A program made the translations under genes and the position numbers. Positions 6,244-30,411 of a DNA stretch of 34,351 bases are shown here, in pieces (position 1 is the first letter of the stretch; every line of letters starts with the position of its first letter). Source of the stretch: a virus (Duplodnaviria > Caudoviricetes); the IMG/VR virus record IMGVR_UViG_3300025086_000112, positions 1-34,351 of that record. One strand, written 5' to 3'. A model generated the notes under the pieces. The model worked only from the letters and a program-made list of their open reading frames with translations. It was not told the origin of the DNA and did no database searches.

Positions 6244-6825
6244 GTGAGTAATTGGTGGAATGTTATAAAACAGAACAAATTGGTTAATTTGCCTAAGTTC
6301 AAAGTTAAACCGTTCAATACTGCAAAGCCGAACGAAGAAGATAGAGAGTGTAAAGATAAAATTATGAAAATTTTTGATTTTACTGAGAATTTTCAACTCC
6401 CTATGATGGAAGATATAGTAGAGGGTTATGATGATATAAAAATTGAAAATCATACAACTGTGTATATCAATAGGCAAGATGAGGATAATGTAAAACGTAT
6501 CGGCATCAGTAAAAACGTAGAAAAATATGGTGTAGATAAGATACCCGAAGAAGCATTTTGTAAGTTATTGGATTTTGTTCAGAACAGAAAATATTTCACT
6601 AGTGATGATGTAGTAATAGACGGACTAGCATATACAATATTTAGTTATGTGAATGCACCATACAAATCGGAGAAGTCAGTAGTAACATATAGAAAAAACA
6701 CACAGTATATAGGAATCCTTACGAGTGATATACGCTTTGTAGCCCAATTAAATATAGATTGGGATGATGATAGTGTTAATGAAGAACTTTTAGATTTCAT
6801 AAAAACAATGGAGTGGCCTATATGA
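6244..6825 (+). CDS. W-tag protein, paralog family A (1/3)
   Basis: N-term WWNVIK..NLPKFKVKPF...KP.E....CK; internal IPEEAFCKLLD. Confidence 0.8.
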   Translation: MSNWWNVIKQNKLVNLPKFKVKPFNTAKPNEEDRECKDKIMKIFDFTENFQLPMMEDIVEGYDDIKIENHTTVYINRQDEDNVKRIGISKNVEKYGVDKIPEEAFCKLLDFVQNRKYFTSDDVVIDGLAYTIFSYVNAPYKSEKSVVTYRKNTQYIGILTSDIRFVAQLNIDWDDDSVNEELLDFIKTMEWPI

Positions 6826-7577
6826 GTTGGTTTAATATTCTTAAAAATGAAATGAGGAGTATTAATTTACCCAAATTTAAAGTTAAACCTTTTAATGTGA
6901 ATAAACCTGATGAAGATGATGATTGTAAACGAAAAGTCATAGAGATAGAAAATAGGTTGTATGCTAGAGAACTTATTAGTGACTCAGAAATGGATGCATT
7001 ACAGAATAAATTAAAAAATATAGCAGTAGATTATGATGTGAAGGTTATGAAAAGACCAGCCCGTGAACATATTCAGAGATATTCAATAACATTTTCACCC
7101 CGTGGTTCTAATAGGTCTAGAAATATTCCTGAGAATGAATACTTAAAAGTAATGATTAGGGTTGATAGACAACAATACGGTTCAAAACCCAGAATTGGGG
7201 TTGAAACGTTTGCTGAGTCTAGTTTAAGTGAAGAAATATATTGTAAAGTACTGGATACTATTGAACGTGATGTGGAGATAACCGAACCTAATTTCATGGG
7301 AGAACCTATCTCCATTAAGTATTGGAAAAAAGAAGAGGGTGAAGGCGACCAAATTAACTTGGATGAGGAAGGAGACATTATTGACAGGGGTAGGGAGTTA
7401 TCATGTATAGTGGGTGATAAAGAGTATATGATGTGTTTTGATTTAGACTGTTATTTGATTTCTAAAGCACCGAAGTATTTGAAGCAAATTAGTAAGAATG
7501 AAGAGGCTGCACTTAGACAATCATTAGTTTTAATAAAGCGTTATTTGGATAATATAAAAGTTAAATTTACGGAGTGA
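6822..7577 (+). CDS. W-tag protein, paralog family A (2/3)
   Basis: MSWFNILKNEMRSINLPKFKVKPF; internal LSEEIYCKVLD. Confidence 0.8.
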   Translation: MSWFNILKNEMRSINLPKFKVKPFNVNKPDEDDDCKRKVIEIENRLYARELISDSEMDALQNKLKNIAVDYDVKVMKRPAREHIQRYSITFSPRGSNRSRNIPENEYLKVMIRVDRQQYGSKPRIGVETFAESSLSEEIYCKVLDTIERDVEITEPNFMGEPISIKYWKKEEGEGDQINLDEEGDIIDRGRELSCIVGDKEYMMCFDLDCYLISKAPKYLKQISKNEEAALRQSLVLIKRYLDNIKVKFTE

Positions 7578-7579
7578 GA

Positions 7580-8338
7580 ATGATGTGGTTTGATATTTTA
7601 AAAAATGAAATGCGTACCGTTAACTTACCTAAGTTCAAGGTGAAACCTTTTGACGTAAACAAACCTGATGAAGATAAAGATGACTGTAAAGATAGAATGT
7701 TCGCACTACAAAATAAAGTAAAGAATACTCCATTATATGATGATAATAGTATATTCGATAAAATTCGGGATAAAGGGACTAGCGAAGAAATTGAATATTA
7801 TGGTGTTACTAAAGACCCATCTCCTGAAGGTCATTCTGAAATACATGGCCCTGACCATTTTGTATCTCAATTTTATCTATATCCTATGAATGTACCTAAT
7901 GCAAAGATTAAAGATGTTAGGGATAAAAGTCATTTTGAAATAGTAGTAGAGGAATCAAGATACATAAATAATAAGCAAGCAGAAAAAATTCCTGAAGAAG
8001 TTTATTGTCGTGCTTTAGATTTAATTGCTCAAGTACCCATTATTGTTAATAAGAATAGAAATATAGACCCATACATTGTTGGTGATTGGAAAATATTCTA
8101 TGACCATAGAGAATATCATGGTGCAGGAAATTTAGGTTTTAATGAGTGGGGTGGTGTAAGTAAAAGAAGGGCTATTCACATACATTCAGATAAATATCCC
8201 TATGAGTTTCATATGCGTAATAGTATAGAATTGGTTATAGGGGAGCATGGGAATATACCAGTAACCATATTTAGACTTGATGATGCACTAAAAGAAATTG
8301 TAGCCCACTACAAAAATATAGAATTTAAATGGAATTAA
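7580..8338 (+). CDS. W-tag protein, paralog family A (3/3)
   Basis: MMWFDILKNEMRTVNLPKFKVKPF; internal IPEEVYCRALD. Confidence 0.8.
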   Translation: MMWFDILKNEMRTVNLPKFKVKPFDVNKPDEDKDDCKDRMFALQNKVKNTPLYDDNSIFDKIRDKGTSEEIEYYGVTKDPSPEGHSEIHGPDHFVSQFYLYPMNVPNAKIKDVRDKSHFEIVVEESRYINNKQAEKIPEEVYCRALDLIAQVPIIVNKNRNIDPYIVGDWKIFYDHREYHGAGNLGFNEWGGVSKRRAIHIHSDKYPYEFHMRNSIELVIGEHGNIPVTIFRLDDALKEIVAHYKNIEFKWN

Positions 8339-8339
8339 T

Positions 8340-8486
8340 ATGGATTGGGATTATTGGGAAGCACAATTATTAGGTTTTTCAAACCCCTATTACATAGATG
8401 GTAAAAAGAATTGGAATACAGAGAAACCTATGAAAGTTGCTTTCTTAGAATGGTTAGGAATGCCTCATATTTTGGAAGAAGAATAG
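8340..8486 (+). CDS. 48-aa hypothetical protein
   Basis: MDWDYWEAQLLGFSKPYY...; starts 1 nt after upstream stop. Confidence 0.55.
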   Translation: MDWDYWEAQLLGFSNPYYIDGKKNWNTEKPMKVAFLEWLGMPHILEEE

Positions 8487-8546
8487 ACAGCATTATATCC
8501 TTTAGCCAATGTTGACCGTTTGCTAGTGATAGCGGGTTGTGGTGTA

Positions 8547-9233
8547 ATGGTTGATTATCGTACTGTATTATCTTCTACTGGCTTCTTACCTATATTCAAC
8601 AGATTAGGTGGGTTTGTAGAAGAAACTGCTATGGATTTGTCAGGTTTAGCATTAGAAGATTTCAATAAGTTTACTGTCGGTGAGTTAACAGAAGACACTT
8701 TAGTTTCATTCGTTTCACCATTATTAGGAGAACCATTAACTCTTACTTTACAAGCCGCTAAAGACCAAATGGAAGAATTAGATGATGATACCGAACCTAT
8801 GGCATTAGATACTTCAACTAAGGATTTAAGTACAGAGACAATAAAACAATTAGAAGAAATAGGTCTATTTGATGCAGCAACCGAAGCAATGGATGGTAAA
8901 ATAAGAGAAAAGATATTACAGAAGGTTATGGAAGGAGAATTATCTAATGTTGAACAACTTAAATTAAAGACACTTGTTACCCATGCTTTACAACAAATAG
9001 CAGAATCATCTGAGTTTAAGAATTATGTAGGTCATACTTTCATTAGAGCATACGATATGTTAATTGTTGAACAAATAAAAGATATGGGAGGGTTAGAAGA
9101 TTTAACTGCTAAAGACCCTGAACCCCCTAAAGACGTATCAGATAAATTTGTTATAGAAGATGTAGAGACTTGGCAAGATAAGATGCGAGAATACAAATCA
9201 TTAGATTGGAAAGATACTATGAAGAGGGATTAA
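8547..9233 (+). CDS. Acidic hypothetical protein with C-terminal W-motif
   Basis: ORF; ends LDWKDTMKRD. Confidence 0.8.
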   Translation: MVDYRTVLSSTGFLPIFNRLGGFVEETAMDLSGLALEDFNKFTVGELTEDTLVSFVSPLLGEPLTLTLQAAKDQMEELDDDTEPMALDTSTKDLSTETIKQLEEIGLFDAATEAMDGKIREKILQKVMEGELSNVEQLKLKTLVTHALQQIAESSEFKNYVGHTFIRAYDMLIVEQIKDMGGLEDLTAKDPEPPKDVSDKFVIEDVETWQDKMREYKSLDWKDTMKRD

Positions 9234-9376: not shown

Positions 9377-9526
9377 TTGGAAAAGTTATCAGATTGGTTT
9401 GAACAATTAAAAATGACAGGTACGGTTTCTACCACTTCTACTGCAACAAGCGACTTATTTAATAATAAAACAGTTAATCGGAGGTTAAAACGTGGCAAAA
9501 AGAAAAAAACCACTAAAGAAAGTTGA
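9377..9526 (+). CDS. 49-aa W-tag microprotein with basic tail
   Basis: MEKLSDWFEQLKMTG...RRLKRGKKKK; GAGGTG RBS. Confidence 0.55.
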   Translation: MEKLSDWFEQLKMTGTVSTTSTATSDLFNNKTVNRRLKRGKKKKTTKES

Positions 9527-10583
9527 ACCTGTTATTTCAATGGGTACTGGTAAATCTAGAGTAGAGTATTCAGGCGAAGAGTTTTCTAAATTATTTAATG
9601 ATTGGAAAACTACTGCTAAAGGTGTTTCAGCAGCAAGTATGGGTGTAACTAGATTCAAGGGAAGTCTTTATGATATTCTAATGAATCACGGTATTGACGG
9701 TAGAATAATGGGTAATTCAGGTCCAAAAGAAACACCGGGTTTGGCTAAAGAGATAGAACTTTTAGAAAGGATGGCGAAACAACCTACTTTCAGCCCACAG
9801 GAATCTAAAGAGTTTAAAGCGATAATAAGTAAGTTAAACGAACATGGGGCAACGGATAGTGATTTGAACCCTAGAAATATTGCATTCGAGGGTATTGTAG
9901 GCATTAGACCTAGAACTAAAAAACCAGTAAAGAAAACAATATATGGTCATTATAGAACTGATGATTATATTGAATATAGAACTGACTATAAAAACAAAGT
10001 TGAAAGTGTTAGAGCAGCAGATGATTCTTGGTGGGATACAAGTAAAGGTGAGGCTACACCACCAATGTGGCAAGCAATTTATGGTGATGGAAGTCTTTCA
10101 CCATTTAATAAACCGGGGTTAGTTGCTGTTGTTACAGCAGGTGCTAAAGCAATAATAGATGTAGTACACCATATTGAAGAAGATGCGCCTGTAAAAATAG
10201 AACAAGCAGGTGCAGCAAAATTTGCATACGAAGGTATTTCAGAAATTAGACAAATGATGAAAATTATGGTTAGGGATGATGAGTTCACCACAAAGGCAGG
10301 AAACTTTGCTACTACTAGGGCTAGAACAAGATTAATGGGTACTCCTATCAATGTAGCAAATAATACTGAAAGTGAGAAAGTTAAAACTTTGTTGAATGCT
10401 AAAGGTACTCCGGGTTTTGTTGAAGATTTCTATATTTATATTTCTAGAAGACAAGTCAATCATATGGCTAAATTGGCAGGTTGGAAGCCTCCTGTTAAAG
10501 AAGAACCTAAAGAAGGTGAAAAATTGACAAGTAGTGATAGAGAAGTTAAAGATTGGAGAACTATAATGAAGGTGATAGCATGA
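9492..10583 (+). CDS. Hypothetical protein with C-terminal W-motif
   Basis: 363-aa ORF, GGAGG RBS; ends KDWRTIMKVIA. Confidence 0.8.
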   Translation: MAKRKKPLKKVEPVISMGTGKSRVEYSGEEFSKLFNDWKTTAKGVSAASMGVTRFKGSLYDILMNHGIDGRIMGNSGPKETPGLAKEIELLERMAKQPTFSPQESKEFKAIISKLNEHGATDSDLNPRNIAFEGIVGIRPRTKKPVKKTIYGHYRTDDYIEYRTDYKNKVESVRAADDSWWDTSKGEATPPMWQAIYGDGSLSPFNKPGLVAVVTAGAKAIIDVVHHIEEDAPVKIEQAGAAKFAYEGISEIRQMMKIMVRDDEFTTKAGNFATTRARTRLMGTPINVANNTESEKVKTLLNAKGTPGFVEDFYIYISRRQVNHMAKLAGWKPPVKEEPKEGEKLTSSDREVKDWRTIMKVIA

Positions 10584-10777
10584 GTTGGATGGATATTGTA
10601 AAAGATGATGATTTAGAAACAGAAGTTTCAGGATATAAAAGGCTCTTAGAGGATAAAATTGCTAGATTAGAGGCTTCAAAAAATAGAACTCAAGTAGAGG
10701 TTATTATTAAATCTCTAATAGAAGAATTGAACTCAAGAAGTATGTATTACTTTGATATTTACGGTGATGAAAAATGA
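10580..10777 (+). CDS. W-tag small protein
   Basis: MSWMDIVKD; GGTGA RBS; ATGA overlap. Confidence 0.75.
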   Translation: MSWMDIVKDDDLETEVSGYKRLLEDKIARLEASKNRTQVEVIIKSLIEELNSRSMYYFDIYGDEK

Positions 10778-10950
10778 GTTGGAAAAGGTATCTCAAACGG
10801 CAAGATAAAGGGTTAGGTGATACCGTTGAAAGAATCACAACAAAAACAGGAATCAAAAAAGCCGTTGATTATGTTTCAGATAAGACGGGTGTAGATTGTG
10901 GATGTACCGCAAGAAAAGAATATTTGAATAGGAGGTTTAACTATGACTAA
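10774..10950 (+). CDS. W-tag small protein (GLGDTV...DCGC motif)
   Basis: MSWKRYLKRQDKGLGDTVERITTKTGIKK...DCGCTARKEYLN; missed by ORF track. Confidence 0.75.
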   Translation: MSWKRYLKRQDKGLGDTVERITTKTGIKKAVDYVSDKTGVDCGCTARKEYLNRRFNYD

Positions 10951-11056
10951 GTGGCAAGAGATATTAAAACTGAAAGGAAAACAAAAGGAACTAGACGTTG
11001 ATGGCGATGGAGACATTGACGCAGAAGATTTCAAAGAATTAAGAGAAAATAAATAG
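10943..11056 (+). CDS. W-tag microprotein with EF-hand-like DxDxDG loop
   Basis: MTKWQEILKLKGKQKELDVDGDGDIDAEDFKELRENK; GGAGG RBS. Confidence 0.7.
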   Translation: MTKWQEILKLKGKQKELDVDGDGDIDAEDFKELRENK

Positions 11057-11064: not shown

Positions 11065-11721
11065 TTGGTAACTAGAAAGCGTTGTGTTTTATGTAATCAT
11101 GAAGATAGATATGACATTGAGCATAGAATCGAAGAATTACATATTAGTACAGATATTATAGATAGAGAATATGATTGGCCTAGTGGTACAACTTCTAGAC
11201 ACCAAAGAAATCATATGGGGGAATACGTTAACTCATCTAATCCTAAGTGTGGGTTGTGTGTTAGTCCTATTAGAAAAGAATTGGAAGAACAATTACATGC
11301 AGGTAATATGACACCAACCACAGCAGCAAATATCGTAGGCTGTTCAGAAGAACAAATAGTACGCCATGTAAAAAATCATTTGCAACCTTTAGTTCAACAA
11401 TCCGCAGCAAATATAATTGCTGTGAAGGAAATAGATGAAATAGAAACTCTTGAGAGAAACATTAGTAGATTAGATACTATGATAGAATCATTGTTTGATG
11501 AAGGTAGTACAGACCCAAAATCTATTGATAGTTTAACCAAACTTGCTAGAGAGATTAGAGAGAGTCTAAAGTATGTTATGGAGTTCAAAGGTAAACTCGT
11601 ACATAAGAGACAAGATACAATTATAGTTGCACAAATGCAAATAGTGCAAGAAGTATTGGCACAAAATCATCCTGATGTTTGGTTAGATGTTAGAAATAAA
11701 ATGGAGGAGAAATTACAATGA
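11065..11721 (+). CDS. Zn-finger/HTH repeat protein, candidate terminase small subunit
   Basis: Two CxxC...HxxxH repeats with HTH-like spacers plus a helical oligomerisation-type C-terminus; upstream of TerL. Confidence 0.5.
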   Translation: MVTRKRCVLCNHEDRYDIEHRIEELHISTDIIDREYDWPSGTTSRHQRNHMGEYVNSSNPKCGLCVSPIRKELEEQLHAGNMTPTTAANIVGCSEEQIVRHVKNHLQPLVQQSAANIIAVKEIDEIETLERNISRLDTMIESLFDEGSTDPKSIDSLTKLAREIRESLKYVMEFKGKLVHKRQDTIIVAQMQIVQEVLAQNHPDVWLDVRNKMEEKLQ

Positions 11722-11966
11722 GTTGGAAAGATATAGTAAAAGAAGAAAACTGGCAGAAGACATATTATGAAAAAGATGCCGAAGAAGGTGAAACAGAATT
11801 AAGACTCAAAATGAAGAGAAGAGGTATTGATGAATCGGCCATAGATGAATCTATTATGAGAGTAAAAGCAAGAGTCATAGATGGCAAAATTGAATTTTCC
11901 GAAAAAGAAGTATTTGATGTTGTTGAACAAATCTATGATAGAAGGATAAAGGACTTATTTGGTTAA
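11718..11966 (+). CDS. W-tag small protein
   Basis: MSWKDIVKEE. Confidence 0.8.
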   Translation: MSWKDIVKEENWQKTYYEKDAEEGETELRLKMKRRGIDESAIDESIMRVKARVIDGKIEFSEKEVFDVVEQIYDRRIKDLFG

Positions 11967-11990
11967 GAAAAGAATACAGGAGGAATTACA

Positions 11991-12233
11991 ATGAGTTGGG
12001 AAGATACAATTAAACTGAATAAGTTCATTGAAGAGGATTACATAAACGCATGGGAGTACAAATCTAGGGATTTCGACAGTTCAAGAGATAAAACAAGGTT
12101 ATTGCGTATAGTTGATTTAATTCATACCGAAGCACGAACAGCACTTGACGATGGATTATCAGAAGATGAATTAAGAGAGAGATTACAAAAAATCGTTAAA
12201 ATAACGGATGCTGTAAATCGGTTTAGGATATAA
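11991..12233 (+). CDS. W-tag small protein
   Basis: MSWEDTIKLN. Confidence 0.8.
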   Translation: MSWEDTIKLNKFIEEDYINAWEYKSRDFDSSRDKTRLLRIVDLIHTEARTALDDGLSEDELRERLQKIVKITDAVNRFRI

Positions 12234-12251
12234 AATGGAGGAGAAGTTACA

Positions 12252-12548
12252 ATGAGTTGGAAAAACATATTAAAAGTTGATAAATGCTCTTATTGTAATG
12301 TAAGTTCTGATGAAACAGGAGTTCACCATACAACTTGTGAAGGAGGATGCGGTAAGAAGATTTGTGATTCCTGTCGTATGAAGTTATTAGGAAAAGAGTG
12401 GATGGTTGTGGATTATGAACCGGACAATGATAATTCGGATATGGGAGATTCTTGTAGGGAATGTTTTGATGCCGGAAAACACCCTCTTGGAAGATTAACC
12501 CCTGCCGAGAATACTGAAGCATTATCTGAGTTGGAGGAGTTACAATGA
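12252..12548 (+). CDS. W-tag Zn-finger protein
   Basis: MSWKNILKVD; CSYC, CEGGC, CDSC, CREC. Confidence 0.8.
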   Translation: MSWKNILKVDKCSYCNVSSDETGVHHTTCEGGCGKKICDSCRMKLLGKEWMVVDYEPDNDNSDMGDSCRECFDAGKHPLGRLTPAENTEALSELEELQ

Positions 12549-12943
12549 GTTGGCATATAATATTAAAACAATTAGACTGTCCTAAAGCAACGCAGGATTT
12601 AATGTTAAATACTAAAAATAGGGATGCAGCAGTAAAAAATCCAAACATTAGATATGGTCCACTTAATCTTGAAGATGAAAAATATTGGGAAGAATATGCA
12701 AGTAGGTGGAACACTTCTGCTGAAGTAGCAAAAGAATCTAATTGTAGTAATTGTGTTGCATTCGATATATCACCAAGAATGGATGACTGTATGCCTTTGA
12801 CTACTGATGAAGATGGTCATTTAGGATATTGCTGGATGCACCATTTCAAATGTCATTCAGCAAGAACTTGTTACACTTGGGCTAAAGGTGGCCCAATTGA
12901 TGATGATGCAACATCAAAAGAAAATCAAATGCGAGGCCAATAA
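12545..12943 (+). CDS. W-tag Cys/His-rich protein
   Basis: MSWHIILKQL; CSNCVAF...GYCWMHHFKCHSARTC. Confidence 0.8.
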   Translation: MSWHIILKQLDCPKATQDLMLNTKNRDAAVKNPNIRYGPLNLEDEKYWEEYASRWNTSAEVAKESNCSNCVAFDISPRMDDCMPLTTDEDGHLGYCWMHHFKCHSARTCYTWAKGGPIDDDATSKENQMRGQ

Positions 12944-13161
12944 TGACTACTTTAGATGATAAGTTAGCCGTATTGGATGCTGCTAAAAGAGTACAAGCCA
13001 CTATAACCAAAGAAATAAGTGATATTAAAAGTGCAGGTACATTGCCAAAAGAAATCACCAACGCTTTGAATGGTATTCAGAGAGGAGTGAATGAATTAAT
13101 CAAAGAGATTAATGATAAGATATACAGGCAGACTACATTGGGGGATTTTGAAAATGAGTAA
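12943..13161 (+). CDS. Small helical hypothetical protein
   Basis: TAATG-coupled ORF. Confidence 0.7.
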   Translation: MTTLDDKLAVLDAAKRVQATITKEISDIKSAGTLPKEITNALNGIQRGVNELIKEINDKIYRQTTLGDFENE

Positions 13162-14806
13162 TTTATTGAAAGCACATTCCAAACGAACCGAGGGTAGATA
13201 TGAGATTATACTAAGTTATCTACTTAGCGAGGAACTAACAAATACTTTTATTTCCAATACAAATGGAGAAAATGTTGCAGGTAGAATAAAGGCAATACAG
13301 TATTTTTTAGATAATCCTGAATCATTTCCTAAGATTCGTAGAAATGATGGAGTAGATGACAGGGCTAAAAAAGTATTAGAAGCAATTAAAGGTATTAAAT
13401 CAAATGAATCTATTGGCGGCAGTAAAGGAAGTCTATTCGATGATATATTAGAGAAGTTCAAATCAGGCGACATACAATCTTTACCAAATTGGTCTAACTC
13501 TCCTGAAGCACCTGAAACAAGAAGAAATAGGGTAAAGAATGTAAGAGATAATAAAACAAAATTGTTTGATGCAATCAAAAATTTTGATGAAGCAAAACAA
13601 ACTCAAGCATATGAAATGTTGAAAAATACTTACAAAATTGACAAACCTGCACCCGATACATATACTATAACTTCTAGACCTAATTCTCAAAAAATGATTG
13701 CATATTTGAGAAAAGTTGTTACTAGTAGTAATATACCAAAAAGAAATAAAATGGAAATTCTTGGTGGTACTGAAGATAATATTACTATAACGAAAATCAA
13801 AGAACTATTTGGAAATGATTATAATGAATTATTACCTACTCTAATTTACATTATAGAAACTAAAGACTTACCTATTAATTCTTCGGGTAATCTAGAATCT
13901 AGAGGTTTTCAAAAACCCAAAACTAAACTATCAATTGCCACTAAACAGGCTTTGAGTGGGTTGAGAGGTAGTGACTCCCCTGAAGGATTAAGAAAAATAA
14001 TGAGTAACATAGTAAGCACCACTAAAGAGAATATAAAGAATAAAAAACTATATCAAGATAATAAATTTTTAGAAGAGGTTGCTAAGAGTGTTGAATTAAA
14101 AAAACAATTTGAGGAATATGTTAGAAGATTATCTGCTGAAGTATCGTTAAATAAAATACCTGCTGATGATTATGATGCATTAAATGCAGAAGAGGAATCT
14201 GATGTATATGATAAGTATGGGTTTGAGGATGCTCAAGATTTTGATGATTGGTTAACTGCTTATGAGGAAAGAGAAGATGCCTTTTCTGCTATGCAACTAA
14301 GAGGTGGTGTTTATGTATTATCATCTGTAAATGATTTAATACATTTATCTGATTTATTTACTGAAGAGGATGTTGATTTAAAAGAAACATTCATGAGCAT
14401 AGATAGAAAAGAATATGGAAATTTTAATACACGATTTAGAATGTTTAAAGATTTAATCCCTATGTTAAATAGTATAAATCAAAGCACTGACACTCCTATG
14501 TCGAAAGAGTTTAAGAAATATTTTACTAAATTCAAAATAGATGCAGCACGATTTGATTCTTTAGAAGAATATAATGAAAACAGAAATGAATATTATGAGT
14601 TAATGTTAAAAGAACTAATTAATAACGGGGCATATAGTAAGATACGCCAAGGGCTGCGAGAAATAATTTATGATTCTATGAAAAAAGTCGTAGAAGATAA
14701 TTATAGAGTAAATGTTCAAGGTGTTACTGAACCTATAAAAATCTTAGAAAATTTAAAAATAGCAACGAAGAAAGTAGAAAGTAGTGAGGTGGAATCGGAT
14801 GAGTGA
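13154..14806 (+). CDS. Large hypothetical protein (possible virion-internal)
   Basis: ~550-aa ORF starting MSNLLKA. Confidence 0.8.
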   Translation: MSNLLKAHSKRTEGRYEIILSYLLSEELTNTFISNTNGENVAGRIKAIQYFLDNPESFPKIRRNDGVDDRAKKVLEAIKGIKSNESIGGSKGSLFDDILEKFKSGDIQSLPNWSNSPEAPETRRNRVKNVRDNKTKLFDAIKNFDEAKQTQAYEMLKNTYKIDKPAPDTYTITSRPNSQKMIAYLRKVVTSSNIPKRNKMEILGGTEDNITITKIKELFGNDYNELLPTLIYIIETKDLPINSSGNLESRGFQKPKTKLSIATKQALSGLRGSDSPEGLRKIMSNIVSTTKENIKNKKLYQDNKFLEEVAKSVELKKQFEEYVRRLSAEVSLNKIPADDYDALNAEEESDVYDKYGFEDAQDFDDWLTAYEEREDAFSAMQLRGGVYVLSSVNDLIHLSDLFTEEDVDLKETFMSIDRKEYGNFNTRFRMFKDLIPMLNSINQSTDTPMSKEFKKYFTKFKIDAARFDSLEEYNENRNEYYELMLKELINNGAYSKIRQGLREIIYDSMKKVVEDNYRVNVQGVTEPIKILENLKIATKKVESSEVESDE

Positions 14807-17556: not shown

Positions 17557-18117
17557 ATGTCGGATGAAGATTATCCTCAATTACCCGCCACTAAGTATGC
17601 TGCTGATGAAATATATTTCAAAACAATGTCAGAGGATGATGCCATTCAAATATTTAGAAAAGATGGGTATGATGGGTTCAAATCTAGAGTACAAAGATTT
17701 AGGAGTATCCCTAAAGATGGTAAGTTTGCTACTGCCCCATCCGTACACCATGTTGCATTTGAAAAAGATACAGACAAACCTATTGGAGTAATCGGTTATG
17801 CACCATACAAAGATTTTTTATTAGGTTCAGGAATACACGTTAGAGACACCTTTAGACGTAGAGGGTTAATGGGATTATTATTTCGTGAAATGATTAGAAA
17901 TAAAGGAAATAAAAAACTGATAGTTAATTTTTCTGATAGAAATGCTATGAACTACTATCTTAGTGAAGGGTTTAGGCAATTAGAGGAATCAGAATTACCT
18001 GATGAATTAATAGAAGAGATTTCTATTGGTAATGCTAAGAAAATTATCGGAACTCTAGAAAAATATTACATTCATAATTCTAGTTGGTGGGCTGCAATAA
18101 AAACCGAGGTGATATAA
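17557..18117 (+). CDS. GNAT-family acetyltransferase
   Basis: HVRDTFRRRGLMGLL (acetyl-CoA motif A) and N..AMNYYLSEGF (motif B); ends SWWAAIKTEVI. Confidence 0.75.
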   Translation: MSDEDYPQLPATKYAADEIYFKTMSEDDAIQIFRKDGYDGFKSRVQRFRSIPKDGKFATAPSVHHVAFEKDTDKPIGVIGYAPYKDFLLGSGIHVRDTFRRRGLMGLLFREMIRNKGNKKLIVNFSDRNAMNYYLSEGFRQLEESELPDELIEEISIGNAKKIIGTLEKYYIHNSSWWAAIKTEVI

Positions 18118-18512
18118 TGGATGTATGGTTTGAACAAGTACAAAAAGGAAAAAAAGATGCTTGTTATCATAAAGTAAGAAGGCGTTACAAGAAATGGCCT
18201 TCTGCCTATGCAAGTGGTGCTTTAGTTCAGTGTAGAAAAGTTGGCGCAAAGAATTGGGGTAATTCTGTAAAGAAAGGTGGAGACAATTTCAAAAGAGAAA
18301 AAGATGAGGGATTACACGGTTGGTTTTCTAGAAGAGGTGGAAAAGAAAAAGGTGGTAAAACTCAAAGAGGTTGGATAGATTGTTCTAGTTGTGGTAGTAA
18401 AGGTGGGCCAAAACCTTGTGGTAGAAAAGATGCTTCTAAAGGAACTAAAAGAAGATGTAGGCCAACATGTGCAGCATGTAAAACATATAAACGAAGGAAG
18501 GGAACAGCATGA
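18117..18512 (+). CDS. Highly basic Cys-rich W-tag protein
   Basis: MDVWFEQVQKGKKDACYHKV...WPSAYASGALVQCRK; GAGGTGA RBS. Confidence 0.8.
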   Translation: MDVWFEQVQKGKKDACYHKVRRRYKKWPSAYASGALVQCRKVGAKNWGNSVKKGGDNFKREKDEGLHGWFSRRGGKEKGGKTQRGWIDCSSCGSKGGPKPCGRKDASKGTKRRCRPTCAACKTYKRRKGTA

Positions 18513-18772
18513 GTTGGTTTGACGTAGTTAAAGAAGGACAATGCACTAGGGCTACAAAAAAAACATCATCTACTCGTAAGGGTAAGAAATGGATGAAGTG
18601 TGTTCCTAATGGTAAAGGCGGATATAAAAGAGTACATTGGGGTCAAAGTGGAGTAACTGTTTCAGGTAAAAGAGATGGTAAGAGAAGAAAATCCTTTAGA
18701 GCAAGACATAAATGTTCTACATGTAAAAGAAGTGATTACTCTGCTAGATGTATGGCTTGTAGAGATTGGTGA
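18509..18772 (+). CDS. Highly basic Cys-rich W-tag protein
   Basis: MSWFDVVKEG...KSFRARHKC...SARCMACRDW. Confidence 0.8.
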   Translation: MSWFDVVKEGQCTRATKKTSSTRKGKKWMKCVPNGKGGYKRVHWGQSGVTVSGKRDGKRRKSFRARHKCSTCKRSDYSARCMACRDW

Positions 18773-21652: not shown

Positions 21653-23299
21653 ATGGTAGAAGAGAAAAGAAGATTTAGTATAGCAAATCTATTTAGAAGA
21701 ACAACGCCAAGACCTGCTGACCGCAAGGTGTTTAATCCGGGTATTCAGGAAAAAGATAATTCCTATATGTTAACTGCTCCTATTATCTACCATATAGCAA
21801 ATCAATCTATAATAGTTAGAACGTGTGTTACACAATTAAAAAATGAAATATTTAGAAGAGGTTATATTTGGGAAGAAAAGTTTGTTGCTAAGTGTGATGA
21901 CTGTTGTAAAGAACATAAAACTCCAACACTCGAATGTGTAGATTGTGGTTCTACAAATCTATCTAAACCTAACCGTGACCAACTAAAATATGCTTTATCA
22001 TTCATGGAAGGTTATGTCAATAAATCTGAACAATTGTTTATTGATGTGCTTAAAGAGTTAGAAGACGATTTGAATATAATGGATGATGGCTATTTAGTAT
22101 TGGTTAAGGAATATTTCTTAGACAATGATTCAGAAATAATGATGCACCGCATCAAAGAAATATACCGAGGCGACCCTGTTGGTATGCATATTTATGCAGA
22201 TGAATTAGGTGAAAGAGGTACAGAGGGATTTACTTGTTTAAGGCATAGGGATTTTATTAGTGATACTCCCGTAGCGTCTTGCCCGAATTGTGGCGCAACA
22301 GAATTATACCCTATACATTATGTTAATAGAGTAAATGGTGAAGAACAATATTTCTTAGAAGGAGAAGTATTACACTTTAGTAAATATACTCCTAGTAGAT
22401 TATATGGTCTATCGCCATTAATTACTTTATGGAATAGTGTAACAACACTTATTGCTATGGATAATTATATTAATTCATCATACACTAAGGCAAGAATGCC
22501 TAGAGGATTACTTGCAGTACAGACTAGAAATATAGAATCTATGAAATCTTTTTGGAAAGGTGTAAAAGAAAAGATGGAACAAGACCCTCATTTTATACCT
22601 GTAATGGGTATTGAATCAGAAGGTGGTAAAGGTTCTATTGAATGGATTAAGTTTATGGATAGCCTAAAAGAAATGGATTATGTTTCAGTCAAAGATGATT
22701 TGAGAGATAGAGTTTCAGGTTTCTATGGTGTAAGTAAAATATTTATGGCTGACAATTCTTCTAGTGGTGGATTGAATAATGAAGGTATGCAAATACTTGT
22801 TACTAATAGAGCAGTAGAAATGGCTCAGACTATTTGGAATAATTATGTATTTCCTTTTGTAACAAAGGAGTTTGGAATTACCGATTGGGTTCTAAAACTT
22901 CCACCATCGGAAGAAGAAGATGAAGTTGCTAAACTAAGAAAAAGAGAACTTGAAGTTAATATTGCTGCATCAATTAAAAATTTAGGATTTGAAATAGATA
23001 TGGATGATGAAGGTAGGTTCTCTTATAGCAAGCCTGAACCAAAACCTGAACAAGAAAGTGCAGGTGGAAATCAAGAAGAAAAGGTCGAGTTAGACCCGTA
23101 TGCAGGTACAAATATTGATGCAAGTCAATTAGGACAAATGCAAGAAGAGATGATGAATCAAGGTAAGAAACAAGAGAACCCTGCTACAACTAGAAATAAA
23201 CCTAGTATGGATAGTGGACCTGATAAAAGATTTAGTGGTTTACCTGAAGCAGCCGGAAATCAAAATGTTGATAAAAGAACCGAAAGAAGGGTAGGTTAG
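21653..23299 (+). CDS. Portal protein with Zn-ribbon insertions
   Basis: Position after TerL; YGLSPL, PRGLL, DMDY...R..V...YGV portal-type motifs; CDDC..CVDC and CLRH..CPNC inserts. Confidence 0.88.
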   Translation: MVEEKRRFSIANLFRRTTPRPADRKVFNPGIQEKDNSYMLTAPIIYHIANQSIIVRTCVTQLKNEIFRRGYIWEEKFVAKCDDCCKEHKTPTLECVDCGSTNLSKPNRDQLKYALSFMEGYVNKSEQLFIDVLKELEDDLNIMDDGYLVLVKEYFLDNDSEIMMHRIKEIYRGDPVGMHIYADELGERGTEGFTCLRHRDFISDTPVASCPNCGATELYPIHYVNRVNGEEQYFLEGEVLHFSKYTPSRLYGLSPLITLWNSVTTLIAMDNYINSSYTKARMPRGLLAVQTRNIESMKSFWKGVKEKMEQDPHFIPVMGIESEGGKGSIEWIKFMDSLKEMDYVSVKDDLRDRVSGFYGVSKIFMADNSSSGGLNNEGMQILVTNRAVEMAQTIWNNYVFPFVTKEFGITDWVLKLPPSEEEDEVAKLRKRELEVNIAASIKNLGFEIDMDDEGRFSYSKPEPKPEQESAGGNQEEKVELDPYAGTNIDASQLGQMQEEMMNQGKKQENPATTRNKPSMDSGPDKRFSGLPEAAGNQNVDKRTERRVG

Positions 23300-23557: not shown

Positions 23558-24907
23558 GTGTCTATATTATTAAAAGCAGATATTTACGGGCATAAAGAGC
23601 CTATGGCTAAAACTGCTTTTGTATTAGACCAAATTAAAAAAACATTTTCTCCTAAAGTTAAAGATTTACTATCTAGTAAAGTACCTGATAATTTTGTAAA
23701 TAATTTAGAAAATGTTGTTAGAGTTACTAATGAAGGTTGGAAAAATAAACTTAGGCAATCTCTATCTGATGATTTGATGACCGCTAGTGGTGGATTTAAA
23801 CCATTAGGTTCTGAAAATTTTACTGAAGAAGGTGAACCATCAAAACCTAAAAAAATAGATATGAGTAAATTATTTGTAGCAATAACTTCTCATCGTAAAG
23901 TGTTTAAACAGATTCTAAAAATTAAACAAGATAATGCTGCTATGTTTTTATTAGCGGGTATGTCTGATGATATGCGTTCAGAAGAAAATCAACAACAATT
24001 AGATAATTTTGTAGAAGATTTAGAAGAAGGTTCAGATGAAAAGGCTATCTATGATGCGTTTGTAGCCGATGAAAATATATTCAATAAATTAGAAACTGCT
24101 ATATCTACACTTGATAAATTAGAAGACCAATTATCTAGAAAAGAAAGAGGGTCGTCTTCAAGTTATTCTTTTATTCCAACATTGACTAATCTACTCAATA
24201 AATATGGTAAAGATTCTAGAATAGAAAATTACAGAGGAGAATTAGATATATTACAAGGTGAATCTAAGTTATTTTCTCAAAAAAGTATATTTAAGTTTTT
24301 AGATAAATACGAAAAAGGTAATCATTCTGCTAGATTACTAGAAGTATTAAATCAAGAATATTCCGGTAAAACAGGAATAGAATTACTTAAAGAAATATTT
24401 ACTAAAGAGGGATTTAAATTAGAAGAAATAAAAGTTGGAGATACAAAACGATTAAAAGAATTTATCAACTTAAGTTATAGAAAAGTAGCAACACAAATTA
24501 AACAAGCAATGAATCCTGATGCTACTAAATCAGCAGTGAAGGTGTTCACACAAATGAAAGAATCTAAGATTATTGACTATGCTGATATTTTAGAACTAAG
24601 ACTTGGAGATTTATTAGATGATAAAGAGGCTAAGGAATCTTATTACTTGACAGAACCCGACCCTATGTTTGATGAAGAAGGAATGCCTGAAAACATTAGT
24701 ATAGGTGTAGCAGATATACAAAATGAGGATTATCGTATGGAGTTAAAAAGAACTACTGAATTATATGCATTTATGTATTATTTAGCAGAATTAAGGGAAA
24801 TCTCTTTAGATAAGTCGTTCTTACGAAATGATGTACATACTGTTGAAGTTGAGTCTTTGCCTGAAAAGTTTGCTATATTAAAAGAAGTTATGGGTGATTT
24901 AGAATGA
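23558..24907 (+). CDS. Hypothetical head-module protein
   Basis: ~449 aa, begins (M)SILLKAD; start could be 23549. Confidence 0.8.
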   Translation: MSILLKADIYGHKEPMAKTAFVLDQIKKTFSPKVKDLLSSKVPDNFVNNLENVVRVTNEGWKNKLRQSLSDDLMTASGGFKPLGSENFTEEGEPSKPKKIDMSKLFVAITSHRKVFKQILKIKQDNAAMFLLAGMSDDMRSEENQQQLDNFVEDLEEGSDEKAIYDAFVADENIFNKLETAISTLDKLEDQLSRKERGSSSSYSFIPTLTNLLNKYGKDSRIENYRGELDILQGESKLFSQKSIFKFLDKYEKGNHSARLLEVLNQEYSGKTGIELLKEIFTKEGFKLEEIKVGDTKRLKEFINLSYRKVATQIKQAMNPDATKSAVKVFTQMKESKIIDYADILELRLGDLLDDKEAKESYYLTEPDPMFDEEGMPENISIGVADIQNEDYRMELKRTTELYAFMYYLAELREISLDKSFLRNDVHTVEVESLPEKFAILKEVMGDLE

Positions 24908-25290
24908 GTTGGGAAGATATATTAAAAAGAAAACTAACTGTTATGGAGGCAGTTGAAGAAATAAATGACGTTTTATCAGGATATAAAAATGTAGAAATAG
25001 AATCTACTCGACAATTAATTGATGGCTACCGTAACCAAGAAATAAAAAATATTTATGATAATTTTTTCTATGACGATGACGAAGCACCTAAACCAAATAC
25101 TAATACATATTATATTCAATGTAATGTAGGAAATTATACAGGAATATTATTTGCTACTTATTTAGATGACAATGACAATGAAGAAATTGACAAGTTTTTG
25201 AGAAGAGTAATGGAATTATCTTTTAATGATAAGTTAGAAGATGCTAAAGATTTTTTGACACCTCTGAATGATGATTGGATGGAAGAGTGA
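24904..25290 (+). CDS. W-tag acidic protein
   Basis: MSWEDILKRK. Confidence 0.8.
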   Translation: MSWEDILKRKLTVMEAVEEINDVLSGYKNVEIESTRQLIDGYRNQEIKNIYDNFFYDDDEAPKPNTNTYYIQCNVGNYTGILFATYLDDNDNEEIDKFLRRVMELSFNDKLEDAKDFLTPLNDDWMEE

Positions 25291-25296: not shown

Positions 25297-25629
25297 ATGA
25301 GTTGGCAATATACACTTCAAAAGGCTGATAGTGGTTTATTGGAAAAACTAGAACCTAAAGAAAAAAAGAAATTGAAGAAATTACTTCAATCTACTCAACC
25401 TTCTGAATATTTTGGTCAAGACTTAACTAAACTATCTACTCTTATAGATGAGATGAAGAAAGTTGAATTAATTAAAAGTGATAAGAAACTAACTAAAAAA
25501 TTAAATGGGTTCGATGAAAAGAACTTAAGTATTGTAGCGTCAGCAGCAGAACTAAGGAAGGATTACGAGACTTTGTATAATCAGTTGCGAAGTATGGTGT
25601 ATCCCAGTAAAAAAGGTGATTTGAAATGA
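25297..25629 (+). CDS. W-tag helical protein
   Basis: MSWQYTLQKAD. Confidence 0.8.
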   Translation: MSWQYTLQKADSGLLEKLEPKEKKKLKKLLQSTQPSEYFGQDLTKLSTLIDEMKKVELIKSDKKLTKKLNGFDEKNLSIVASAAELRKDYETLYNQLRSMVYPSKKGDLK

Positions 25630-25853
25630 GTGAACAAAATGAAATGCTTATGCTAATGAAAGAGTTAGTTGATAAAGTAAAGGCACTAGAAGATACAGTA
25701 TATAGACAAGATAATTTGTTAATGAAATCAGGATTTGTAGTTTCTACATCTCCTAAACCCGCTATCGTTAATGGTGCAACTCCATCAAGTGATGTAATTT
25801 CTAAAATGGATTGGGATGATATTCATAAGATAGTAGAGAGAATAGAAGGGTGA
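25626..25853 (+). CDS. Small coiled-coil protein resembling scaffold C-terminus
   Basis: Ends SKMDWDDIHKIVERIEG, similar to scaffold end SSMSWGDIHNLARKF. Confidence 0.75.
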   Translation: MSEQNEMLMLMKELVDKVKALEDTVYRQDNLLMKSGFVVSTSPKPAIVNGATPSSDVISKMDWDDIHKIVERIEG

Positions 25854-26626: not shown

Positions 26627-29179
26627 ATGTCAATTTCAGGCGTAGTATTTGAAAAGAAGAAAGACCTTCTAACAAAAAGAGTGTTAGACTTTTTTGAACG
26701 AACACGATTTTCGTATTTGTCAGCACTAGAAGACCCGAAAGAATACAATAAAAAATGGAAAAATACTGTAAAGTCTATACGAACACAATTTGATTCTTTA
26801 GATGCTTTTACAGGACTACTAAAGAAACACTTAGATGAGGATATTTTATTCGATGAGAAGGCAGAAGATGCATCTTCCATGCAAGCAAGAAAATTATATG
26901 AGGCTGTCAAATCATTGAGATTTGAGTCTAAAGAAATAAGTGACCCGTTTGCAGAACAGTTAGGTGATAATGTAGTAGATACATTATTATCTAATGATAG
27001 TGTATATGCTGCATTTGTACATTATGCCTTAAGAGCGCATAATATTCCTTTACCTTCAGCAGCGTGGGAAAAGCATAATCTTCGCCCTGATGAAATTACT
27101 CAAGGTGCTATGGGATTAGATTTAGAATCTAAGGATATTCCATTATATATTTCTGAACATTATGGTGAGAATAAAGACACTAAAAGAATTAAATCTAAGT
27201 TTAATAGTATCTTGTCCCTACTAAAAAAAGTATTTTTAGAAGAATATACCAATGTACAATGGAATAAGTTAGTTGATATTAATATTAAAAAATCTGACGA
27301 TACTAAATCAGAAGAAGAAAAGGCAGATATTAATTTTGTAATTCCAAATAAACCTATGTACAGAATATTTGAATTAAACGATATGGAACAATTAAAAGGT
27401 TTTAGTGGTGAATATGTTGTTCAAGAAAAATATGATGGGATGAGAGTTCAATTACATAAGATAGATGGTAAGGTAAAAATATATTCTTATAACCAAAAAG
27501 ATATTACTGATAAATGTTCTGAACAAGTAGAACAATTAAATAAAAAACATTTTGGAGATTGTATATTAGATGGGGAATTAATGTTATTTAGAGGTGAAGA
27601 ACCTTTACACCGAGCATCTGTAATTAATTATATGTTCAAGAAACCCGTAGATGGATTGAAACTTAGACTTCATGTATTTGATATCATGAGACATGAGGAA
27701 AGAGATTTAATGGATGAACCACTAAGAGAGAGAATCAATATTTTAATGTATCAATATTCACAACATTCTTCCGAAGATTTAGCATTCCCATCTAAAAAAG
27801 ATACTAGAATAGCAGATTCTATTAAAGAGGTAGGTACTTATTCTGAAACTATAATGCAATTACCTGCATCAGAAGGTGTAGTAATTAAAGATATAGAATC
27901 TACTTATCAGATAGGTAGTAGAAAAAATCCTAAATGGGTTAAGTGGAAAAAGTTTGTTGATTTAGATGTTGTAGTATTAGATTCTAAGAAAACTAAGAGT
28001 AATTTATATTCTTATACTATTGGTATTGGACCTGTGAGTGCAGAGCAATCAAGAAAATACAAAACTACGGAATTAAAAGATAAAGCATATATTCCTGTTG
28101 GGAAGGCGTTGAATACCAAAGAATCTGTTGAGGTTGGTGAAATAGTTAGGGTAAAGGTTGATGAAGTAAAGAAAACTAAAGAAGGATTTAGTTTGTATTC
28201 TGCTAAAGTAATTGAAATACCTGAAGTTACTGAATCTGATAAATTAGCAACTTTAGAATTATTATCTGATAAAACTAAAAAATCTATTTGGGAAGATTTA
28301 GATAAGCCATTTAAGTATAGATTGAAAGGTGTCAAAAAGATGTATATTACTGATGATATACATGGTGAAGCGGAAATACTATTGAAATCTGATTTAGATG
28401 GATTTACTATTATGGGTTTCAGTGGTGACAATTTAATGGAGAAAAAAGCATTATATGATATTGATGTTTGGAAAGAAGATTTAAAACAAGCAATAAAAAG
28501 TATGCGTTCTGAATTAAGATTATCAATAAAGAATAAACTATTAGATATGGATGAACCTGTTAGTTTTGAACAAATAGTAGAGTTTGTTAAAGAACATCAT
28601 ATGGATAAGTTTGAAAGTACTGCTTTTGATTCAGACTTAAAAAGATTAAAGAAATGGTTAATTAGACAAGAAGATATTGTTTATAATAAAACAGAAGATA
28701 ATTTTGTTGCTAATAATGATACAATTGAAAAGCAACCAAAAACTAATCCTAAGCAAGCAAATTTTTTAATTCAAAGAAGAGATGACAAAAATTTAGATTT
28801 TATTATTGAGACAGCAGAAAAAAAGATGGCTTGGTTGTTTGATATAGAAACAACTTCCGATGTTTATAACTTATTTGGTAAATCAGGTAAGTTTCCTGCT
28901 AAAATAAGTTTATCAGGTATTAAACAGGGTAAAGTAATTGATAGTGGTAAGGTAATATTAGGAGTACAGAAAGACGGTTATCATGAGTATAAATTAGAAG
29001 GTGATAAGTTTGATACTAGATTACACGTTAGAGTTGTACCTTTAGATGGTAAAGATACTTGGATTACATGGACTGGTAAAAAACAAACTATGTTAGATAC
29101 TAAAGAAGATGAAGGAGTATGGGATATTACCCTTGACAGGTATAAAAAATTAGACTTACCTGAATCTGAAACCGCTTAG
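26627..29179 (+). CDS. lig: ATP-dependent DNA ligase with N- and C-terminal extensions
   Basis: Motif I EKYDGMR, III LDGEL, IIIa VFDI, IV EGVVIK, V WVKWK, then OB-fold region. Confidence 0.9.
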   Translation: MSISGVVFEKKKDLLTKRVLDFFERTRFSYLSALEDPKEYNKKWKNTVKSIRTQFDSLDAFTGLLKKHLDEDILFDEKAEDASSMQARKLYEAVKSLRFESKEISDPFAEQLGDNVVDTLLSNDSVYAAFVHYALRAHNIPLPSAAWEKHNLRPDEITQGAMGLDLESKDIPLYISEHYGENKDTKRIKSKFNSILSLLKKVFLEEYTNVQWNKLVDINIKKSDDTKSEEEKADINFVIPNKPMYRIFELNDMEQLKGFSGEYVVQEKYDGMRVQLHKIDGKVKIYSYNQKDITDKCSEQVEQLNKKHFGDCILDGELMLFRGEEPLHRASVINYMFKKPVDGLKLRLHVFDIMRHEERDLMDEPLRERINILMYQYSQHSSEDLAFPSKKDTRIADSIKEVGTYSETIMQLPASEGVVIKDIESTYQIGSRKNPKWVKWKKFVDLDVVVLDSKKTKSNLYSYTIGIGPVSAEQSRKYKTTELKDKAYIPVGKALNTKESVEVGEIVRVKVDEVKKTKEGFSLYSAKVIEIPEVTESDKLATLELLSDKTKKSIWEDLDKPFKYRLKGVKKMYITDDIHGEAEILLKSDLDGFTIMGFSGDNLMEKKALYDIDVWKEDLKQAIKSMRSELRLSIKNKLLDMDEPVSFEQIVEFVKEHHMDKFESTAFDSDLKRLKKWLIRQEDIVYNKTEDNFVANNDTIEKQPKTNPKQANFLIQRRDDKNLDFIIETAEKKMAWLFDIETTSDVYNLFGKSGKFPAKISLSGIKQGKVIDSGKVILGVQKDGYHEYKLEGDKFDTRLHVRVVPLDGKDTWITWTGKKQTMLDTKEDEGVWDITLDRYKKLDLPESETA

Positions 29180-29211
29180 TTAATATAGTCGTTGAAAAAA
29201 ACCTATTGCTA

Positions 29212-30411
29212 ATGCTGTCTGCACCAATGCGTCTTGTTAATCAAGGTGTGCGTGATTTTAGTATTCTAAAGTCAGATGATTTAATTATTGGTGGCTATGC
29301 TTCAATAGAAATGATAGATAAGCAAAATGATTTAATTACTCTTAAAGCATTAGAAGAGGCTGTTGAAGGTTTTATGGTTAATAAGAAATTTAGAAATGTA
29401 ATGTCTAACCATTCTAATGTTCAAGTAGGAGAAGTAATTGATTCTTATAGAGATAAAAATGGTTTAGTACATAAAACTCATGTGGATGATGTTGGATTTT
29501 ATGTTGTTATCAAATTGAGAGATGATATTGAAAAGGCAAAGGAAATATCTAGAAATATTAGAAAAGGAACATTACGTTCTTTTAGCATAGGAGGTCAGGC
29601 TATTTCTAAAAGAAGCCGTAAATCAAGTGATTTAGGTGAATATAATGAAATAGATGGTCTTGAATTACACGAAGTCACAATTTGCGAAAAGGGAATTAAC
29701 CCTGAAGCAAAATTTGATATATTAAAGGAAGAAAAAGGTGAAAACAATATGACTGAAAAGTTAGAAAAAGCCCTTGCGGAGTTAAATGACTTGATGAAAC
29801 AAGTTAATTCTCTGAATAAGGAAGAAGAAACGATGGAAGCCCCAATGGAAGAGGACATGGAGTACATGGCTACTGACGAAGGGAAAGATGAAAAAGAAAT
29901 GATGGCATATGAAAAGGCTGATGATGAAGAAGCAAAAGCATTAGATGACCAAGATTTAACTCACATTGAAGCGGGTGAAGAAGTAGTAGTTAATGGAAAT
30001 CCAACTGCAACTCCTGCACCTCTAAAAGTATCTAAAGAATGGGATGCATCAGAATTTAAATCATTAGATTTATCTGCTGAAAATGTTGAAAAGGCTTATG
30101 AGCAATTTAAAGCAGAACAATTAGAAAAGATTGCTTATGAAAACCTATCAAAACAATTTGAATCAAGGTTTGTTTCAGAACAGGCTGTAAGAAAGTCTGC
30201 TAACGAGAGAGCAGAATATGATGCTCGTACAGAAGTAGCAGCATTAAAAGAAGAGTTTGCTGAACTACGCAAATCATTATCTGCTAAAGATACTGAAATA
30301 GCAAAAGCAAAAGAAGTTTCGTTTGGATTACCTGAAGGTTTCCCTGCAACATCAGAAGAGTTATCTTCTATGAGTTGGGGCGATATTCATAATCTAGCGA
30401 GGAAGTTTTAG
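29212..30411 (+). CDS. HK97-family prohead protease fused to scaffold
   Basis: IGGYAS...DKQND, NH...VG (His), SFSIGG (Ser), EVTIC..GIN; acidic coiled-coil C-half; TTAATATA TATA-like box upstream. Confidence 0.92.
   Translation: MLSAPMRLVNQGVRDFSILKSDDLIIGGYASIEMIDKQNDLITLKALEEAVEGFMVNKKFRNVMSNHSNVQVGEVIDSYRDKNGLVHKTHVDDVGFYVVIKLRDDIEKAKEISRNIRKGTLRSFSIGGQAISKRSRKSSDLGEYNEIDGLELHEVTICEKGINPEAKFDILKEEKGENNMTEKLEKALAELNDLMKQVNSLNKEEETMEAPMEEDMEYMATDEGKDEKEMMAYEKADDEEAKALDDQDLTHIEAGEEVVVNGNPTATPAPLKVSKEWDASEFKSLDLSAENVEKAYEQFKAEQLEKIAYENLSKQFESRFVSEQAVRKSANERAEYDARTEVAALKEEFAELRKSLSAKDTEIAKAKEVSFGLPEGFPATSEELSSMSWGDIHNLARKF
29749..30411 (+). CDS. Nested in-frame scaffold protein (internal start)
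   Basis: AAAGGTGA RBS before in-frame ATG (MTEKLEKALAEL) at the domain boundary. Confidence 0.55.
   Translation: MTEKLEKALAELNDLMKQVNSLNKEEETMEAPMEEDMEYMATDEGKDEKEMMAYEKADDEEAKALDDQDLTHIEAGEEVVVNGNPTATPAPLKVSKEWDASEFKSLDLSAENVEKAYEQFKAEQLEKIAYENLSKQFESRFVSEQAVRKSANERAEYDARTEVAALKEEFAELRKSLSAKDTEIAKAKEVSFGLPEGFPATSEELSSMSWGDIHNLARKF

Follow-up and report, generated by a model that had tools for sequence, protein, structure and literature searches.

A Trp-to-Lys peptide on head-module proteins of a magrovirus as a candidate procapsid-loading and cleavage signal

In bacteriophage T4, IPI-III and Alt carry a short N-terminal capsid-targeting sequence (CTS) that is removed by gp21, and within this peptide residues 4 and 7 are responsible for targeting and residues 8 and 10 for processing (PMC9026906, in part; sources marked in this way are cited for the portion of their text that was available). 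In HK97 the cut site is K103/S104, and scaffold tails contact the coat protein in P22 and T7, with scaffold contacts lying near the N-arm (PMC10275583, in part). Here we describe a short peptide, M-S-W-x-x-I-L-K, at the start of many otherwise unrelated proteins encoded by the IMG/VR virus record IMGVR_UViG_3300025086_000112, a 34-kb record whose whole length of 34,351 nucleotides is called the window and which represents the head module of a magrovirus, a virus of marine Poseidoniales. Our analysis makes it probable that this tag is a T4-CTS-like signal that would dock cargo proteins in the procapsid and be cut after its Lys by the S78 prohead protease, so that the cargo leaves with the DNA.

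By Pfam and PHROGs assignment, TerL is encoded at 18777 and the portal protein at 21653; they are followed by genes for an ATP-dependent DNA ligase (26627), a fusion of S78 prohead protease and scaffold (29206) and an SU10-type capsid protein (30424). All 15 open reading frames which a preliminary description, made from the sequence alone, had reported to begin with the motif were located. When defined strictly as M-x(0-6)-W-x-x-[ILVMFATY]-[ILVMF]-K, the tag is present on 12 of the 34 genes between 6244 and 31800; in 20,000 composition shuffles of their proteins, matches averaged 0.04 and never exceeded 2. The three reading frames that miss the strict pattern are variants with mostly canonical homologs, the tag being strict in 60/87 and loose in 83/87 homologs of 25297, strict in 8/15 and loose in 15/15 homologs of 18117, and strict in 1/4 and loose in 3/4 homologs of 9377. 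The genes concerned are as follows.

6244..6825, + strand: tagged paralog 1, tag W-W-N-V-I-K at 6244-6270, no family match
6822..7577, + strand: tagged paralog 2, tag at 6822-6845
7580..8338, + strand: tagged paralog 3, tag at 7580-7603
8547..9233, + strand: acidic 228-residue protein with a tag-like C-terminus at 9207-9224, found only in near-identical relatives
9377..9526, + strand: basic 49-residue protein with a TTG start and a variant tag whose W is residue 7
9492..10583, + strand: conserved 363-residue module gene with a C-terminal Trp helix at 10554-10571
10580..11056, + strand: three small tagged genes, 10580 (65 residues), 10774 (58 residues, Cys pair) and 10943 (37 residues)
11718..12943, + strand: variable cassette slot behind gene 11065, with tagged genes 11718, 11991, 12252 and 12545
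13154..14806, + strand: 550-residue protein with the Trp-less start L-L-K-A
17557..18117, + strand: GNAT acetyltransferase with a C-terminal Trp helix at 18085-18102
18117..18512, + strand: basic Cys-rich protein with a variant tag, its domain common to GC119 proteins of T4-like cyanophages (phrog_727)
18509..18772, + strand: tagged basic protein, DUF5754-like (below cut-off)
23558..24907, + strand: 449-residue protein with the Trp-less start I-L-L-K-A
24904..25290, + strand: tagged acidic protein in a swap slot
25297..25629, + strand: conserved tagged core gene (87 loci) with an internal I-K-S site
25626..25853, + strand: conserved 75-residue protein with a tail at 25806-25826 like the scaffold tail
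26627..29179, + strand: structural-module ATP-dependent DNA ligase (Pfam)
29206..30411, + strand: S78 prohead protease fused to scaffold, F-x-I-L-K at 29257-29271 and 29713-29727, tail M-S-W-G-D-I-H at 30370-30390
30424..31800, + strand: major capsid protein (SU10_MCP) with a conserved 28-residue propeptide ending L-L-K (30496-30507)

Within five related whole contigs the tag was found on 56/143 head-module genes vs 1/349 genes elsewhere (p=4e-33), the sole tagged gene outside the module lying two genes past the capsid gene in relative G005. With this one exception TerL, portal and post-capsid genes have no N-terminal tag, as had been claimed, and the tag is absent from replication genes; an equal frequency in replication or early genes, one of the findings named in advance as speaking against it, was not observed. 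A wider set of 160 loci plus the window, from which our own gene caller predicted 2389 unique forward-strand proteins, contained 601 tagged proteins (478 after 90% clustering) with the logo M-[SNT]-W-[EFQK]-[DNE]-[IV]-[LIV]-K, calculated from the 478 non-redundant proteins. They fall into 222 of the 375 families obtained by single-linkage clustering, 140 being singletons; as short bodies were clustered in this way, the figure of 222 is an upper bound. Conversely, the tag counts in relatives are too low, because the caller disregards the tag and at times picks a later start; in the window it missed 12252, 18509 and 9377. The 24 full TerL-centred loci carry 5-14 tagged genes apiece and have few families in common (median Jaccard 0.07).

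Moreover, the peptide itself is selected, as indicated by free Leu codon choice, background usage of Lys codons and a Ser codon bias that is general to M-S starts. Comparison of the 222 representatives of families shows different Leu codons in 77% of same-residue pairs, and usage of the tag Lys codons is at background. The Ser2 codon is AGT in 126/128 tagged genes and also in 46/59 untagged M-S starts; the bias was therefore rejected as proof of a DNA element. Conservation at the DNA level only, the other finding that had been named in advance as speaking against a protein tag, was likewise not observed, as synonymous variation is free and the tag survives it. In near-identical viruses sequence identity extends 11-29 nucleotides into 24904, through the tag, gives way to another body and resumes 10-14 nucleotides before 25297. 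This exchange was seen in six contigs (G001, L002, L003/L085, L082, L088 and L089) with five different bodies behind the tag; G002 behaves alike but lies 50 nucleotides from its contig end, L081 is identical, and L005-L007 yielded no segment. The slot after gene 11065 shows similar behaviour, its four genes being missing in G001 and replaced by a different tagged gene in G002. Four RNA-library runs, which contained only 6-9% of the words and assembled into short contigs from related strains, were uninformative on expression; one contig departs directly after the 11718 tag, a hint from this single contig only. Since bodies are exchanged behind the tag in near-identical viruses, the tag is literally portable, and the earlier proposal of a portable protein-level tag is supported by its confinement to the head module, its freely varying codons and the swapping of bodies at its boundary. 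DNA still matters for the spread of the tag.

The Φ-Φ-K end of the tag (Φ, hydrophobic residue) is the same as that found at both ends of the protease domain and at the end of the capsid propeptide. The protein encoded at 29206 scores 35.5 bits against PF04586 (cut-off 21), with H52 invariant and S110 conserved in at least 90%, and its protease domain opens and closes with F-x-I-L-K, invariant in 43/43 sequences. Likewise, K28 of the capsid protein is invariant in 48/48, and distant capsid homologs (~30% identity) have Lys at this site, after a conserved short propeptide, in 79/101. The motif Φ-Φ-K-[AS] is ~1.7-fold denser in the module (43 per 37,355 residues) than outside (55 per 82,859 residues), and in three tagged RNA-repair enzymes the catalytic domain starts directly after the Lys. 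Cleavage after Lys, as the preliminary description had suggested, is thus supported indirectly by the invariant Φ-Φ-K sites and by the HK97 precedent. Internal matches, namely the W-L-S-V-M-K of the capsid protein and Trp sites of TerL and the portal protein, were rejected as candidates and taken as residues of the fold. In HVTV-1 (L185:4781-17787), linkers with Φ-x-K recur between the modules of gp113, gp115, gp116, the protease and the capsid protein, and these head-module proteins lack an N-terminal Trp tag. In phage DSL-LC01 (L187:9656-15327) a 12545 homolog adjoins the capsid maturation genes and follows V-T-A-A; head proteins of this phage show recurrent Φ-x-A-A, perhaps a third dialect of cut site.

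A different tag with the same end was found in a second lineage, represented by 107 loci picked by motif, the TerL of which is 34-38% identical to that of the window. Here M-x-P-[FM]-D-x-A-W-x-L-L-K occurs on 66 families, in its strict form on 67/666 proteins vs 0/2389 in the lineage of the window. As the loci were chosen by motif, only the count on whole contigs is a fair test, and it gave 17/88 genes up to the capsid gene vs 0/178 after it or in the early block. Common to both tags is an aromatic helix ending Φ-L-K. Two tagged genes of this lineage (G010:4776 and G006:5806) are encoded in the opposite orientation to the late block.

The 18117 domain offers a further comparison, as its homologs occur in 369 GenBank phage records, mostly of T4-like cyanophages. 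Among the 120 database homologs closest to the window protein 104 have the Trp-to-Lys tag, N-terminal in 83. The five T4-like cyanophage homologs examined all have Φ-x-E ahead of the domain, one of them as a full CTS-like K-T-F-S-D-F-I-E-E, and in Roseobacter phage CRP-902 the domain has no leader. The homolog in S-SCSM1 (ORF29) is annotated 'virion protein'. This comparison lends support to the T4-CTS-like reading of the tag.

The first six positions of the tag, M-S-W-x-D-I, are covered by the motif of the scaffold tail, M-[SD]-W-x-[DE]-I-[HN], which is present in 43/43 scaffolds and in the same form at the tail of 74/74 homologs of 25626, with Met in 92%; the 25626 protein is likely an accessory scaffold. 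The capsid propeptide (30424-30507) contains T-I-x-D-L-E-x-x-x-Y-G followed by Φ-x-K, kept in homologs of ~30% identity, and is a candidate receptor for the scaffold tail. Related peptides had been reported at or near six C-termini. Those of 9492, GNAT, 25626 and the scaffold are conserved in homologs, that of 8547 was seen only in near-identical relatives, and the MSWMDKLE of the LAGLIDADG protein was dismissed as chance, its Trp not being kept. The 9492 family has the C-terminal Trp in 21/21 homologs, together with the Lys in 12, and an additional N-terminal tag in five; W-x-x-Φ-Φ-[KR] occurs in seven of the eight GNAT sequences listed, that of the window included. The loose motif W-x-x-[IVTL] was found in the last 22 residues of 31/143 module proteins vs 34/349 elsewhere (p=7e-4), while strict-profile C-terminal tags, at 2/143 vs 1/349 (p=0.2), were not significantly enriched. 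C-terminal enrichment is weaker than N-terminal.

Taken together, the tag is limited to the late head module, is selected as a peptide and is kept while recombination at its boundary swaps the bodies behind it. Its I-L-K half would be a maturation cut site of the S78 prohead protease, given that Φ-Φ-K also flanks the protease domain on both sides and closes the capsid propeptide. More doubtfully, its M-S-W-x-D-I half may copy the C-terminal helix of the scaffold and bind the same site on capsid protein or core, mimicry being the simplest docking route given that scaffold tails bind coat protein in P22 and T7. The mature cargo, which may include tRNA-repair enzymes, basic DNA-binding peptides, the module ligase and anti-defence proteins, would then act at or just after injection.

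Several observations weigh against this interpretation. The chief counter-example to confinement is an early-block gene of ~390 residues (G001:28945, G002:29322, G005:23455) with an internal W-D-K-I-L-K-R at residue 14-17. The residue after the tag Lys is broad (A 16%, K 15%, E 11%), as it is after the second F-x-I-L-K site of the protease, while the N-terminal protease site and the capsid site have S/A. Cutting C-terminal copies behind their Lys would leave the Trp helix on the protein, and clipping after K, as initially envisaged, would not remove them. On a profile of the first half of the tag the scaffold tail ranks near the 10th percentile of tags and two sites in a gene of the early region score higher; the second lineage has this scaffold tail unchanged, yet a tag in another register, and the two therefore do not co-vary. 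Tagged genes resemble one another slightly more in their upstream DNA (0.39-0.44 vs 0.32). For S-SCSM1, virion mass spectrometry has been done (PMC9602691, in part) and the supplement did not confirm detection of ORF29, nor is its neighbour ORF30, with a CTS-like decamer start, labelled a virion protein. Glu-rich linkers are common and Φ-x-E could arise by chance; since the records are also few, five in all, the cyanophage comparison is supporting and not decisive. Finally, the virus group is uncultured and known here from sequence alone.

The tag forms a helix of amphipathic character, with a moment of 0.50 at 100 degrees against 0.19 at 160, and this property, together with late-operon confinement, protein-level selection and the existence of C-terminal and internal copies, would also suit another common partner in the producing cell, such as an assembly site or viral factory, a membrane, a chaperone or the proteasome, where the cargo would work; tRNA-repair enzymes, too, could act late. 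We consider this unlikely, as tail genes, which are likewise late, are all untagged, the Lys end in both lineages matches the sites at which capsid protein and protease would be processed, and T4-like homologs carry Glu-ending motifs. A membrane segment was found in 1/222 tagged representatives.

The nature of the cargo bears on a further alternative, in which the tagged proteins are accessory scaffold or core filler that is cut and lost, or an inert counter-charge to DNA, and nothing is delivered. Many bodies are indeed short and charged (median 104 residues; 31 basic and 76 acidic of 222) and the tag start equals the scaffold tail. A Pfam match was obtained for 8 of 150 tested proteins, the longest ATG-started of the 222 representatives, and at L071:3827-5967 three tagged genes in a row encode a 2H phosphodiesterase, near-identical to an L070 protein that matched Pfam, an HAD RNA-repair phosphatase and a CCA-adding enzyme, a trio predicted to mend cut tRNAs. 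The CCA-adding enzyme also ends in a Trp helix. The tagging of such intact-looking enzymes, and a turnover of bodies between near-identical viruses (Jaccard 0.07) that suits host conflict better than a structural role, make the filler alternative quite improbable. A last alternative is that the motif is mainly a cassette head, made up of a ribosome site, a coupled start and the opening codons, which recombination would spread and which would favour expression, its peptide having no partner. This would agree with the swap points at the tag, with the heads of 11718, 11991, 12252 and 12545 repeating over 60 nucleotides at 62-85% DNA identity and with an ATGA start in 162/189 tagged vs 33/87 untagged genes, but is very improbable given that Leu, Ile and Lys codons vary freely while Trp, Φ, Φ and Lys are held, that internal and C-terminal copies lie far from start codons, and that the second lineage has a different peptide with the same end.

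Further features of the module concern individual genes and their surroundings. The tandem paralogs at 6244-8338 (three copies in the window, three in G001, five in G002) have a common 35-residue head and diverged bodies (24-73% identity between genomes) with no family match. The 10943 protein is EF-hand-like, below the Pfam cut-off, and 13154 has two orthologs, 25% identical, with the full tag. An ESM Atlas search with 6822 and 14799 gave no usable match, and tblastn with 18509 and 10943 against GenBank phages found none. In the ligase 26627 an internal W-K-x-T-V-K (26756-26773, residue 44) is kept in 32/46 homologs and L-L-K-S (28376-28390), after the ligase domain, in 31/46; the second lineage has a version of more than 1800 residues. 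A 29-nucleotide tandem duplication (5960-6017) is intergenic, ahead of the late block, and 33033-34351, downstream of the capsid genes, encodes two membrane proteins together with a small protein resembling GTPases (weak Roc/SRPRB matches); in the second lineage this block lies upstream amid tagged genes and is itself untagged. No tRNA genes were found in the window. Monomer models were too poor for use, with a predicted local distance difference test score (pLDDT) of 54 for the capsid protein and 42 for the protease domain, and a sequence search for a solved structural relative of the capsid protein gave none.

If the tag loads cargo as proposed, it could, more tentatively, define an open library of virion-loaded effectors, in which any gene recombining behind an 8-codon head would gain a scaffold-mimic helix and a Lys cut site, be packed and be injected. 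Such a library, with hundreds of families including tRNA-repair enzymes and the module ligase, might be the first example known from archaeal viruses of a large counter-defence arsenal loaded in advance, and cargo domains might cross between archaeal and bacterial viruses by swapping a Lys tag for a Glu tag. The tag would then serve as a barcode for injected proteins of abundant uncultured ocean viruses, its ~200 mostly unannotated families as ranked candidates for archaeal anti-defence and host-takeover factors, and the 8-mer as a loading signal for HK97-type shells. It would also explain the ligase of the magrovirus structural module, which has been called 'unexpected' (PMC5434244, in part), and show the strategy of the T4 internal proteins at work in Archaea, with another protease chemistry.

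We found no description of the tag in the literature searched, including the available portions of PMC5434244, PMC11706807, PMC10160649, PMC8651126 and PMC4284463, and subscription papers and supplements may bear on this point. A virion anti-BREX protein of tailless haloviruses has no such tag in the available part of a 2026 preprint (10.64898/2026.04.28.721311). From its gene layout the virus is probably a magrovirus of group B, or Aoguangviridae. Features in common with this group (PMC5434244, in part; PMC10768690) are relatives of 90-103 kb, reaching 95-103 kb in IMG/VR, and ~32% GC, divergent replication and structural blocks, and a ligase and a LAGLIDADG gene inside the structural block; the nearest cultured kin of its protease and capsid protein are the haloarchaeal Druskaviridae (24-29% identity). 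It differs in the tag, which is described neither in the available part of PMC5434244 nor in PMC10768690. The DarB signal of phage P1 and the propeptides of the giant phages SPN3US and phiKZ are likewise N-terminal, guide proteins of ejection or anti-restriction function into the head and are removed by a protease (PMC9024508, PMC5694885 and PMC12810830, all in part). However, the P1 Dar proteins have no consensus and the giant-phage propeptides are mostly >100 residues, in contrast to the one common 8-mer found here. HK97 maturation, taken together with the scaffold helices of P22 and T7, likewise involves an S78 protease and, in capsid protein and scaffold, cut sites of the form Φ-x-K, but the available text of PMC10275583 describes no cargo tag for HK97, whereas here cut site and scaffold-like helix would be reused as a portable one. 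Closest is the T4 CTS, which is also a short conserved N-terminal aromatic-x-x-hydrophobic peptide on unrelated, variable proteins and which ends, as the tag would, in the P1 residue, that before the cut (PMC3012670 and PMC9026906, both in part). IPII/III start with M-K-T-Y-Q-E-F-I-A-E, and since the tag has no sequence likeness to the IPI-III starts and ends in Lys in place of the Glu of T-even phages, it is not a member of the T4 CTS. It further differs from the T4 system in its S78 protease-scaffold fusion, its archaeal host, the position of the cargo genes inside the head operon and its scale of 9-18 tagged genes per genome drawn from a pool of ~200 families, with C-terminal and internal copies.

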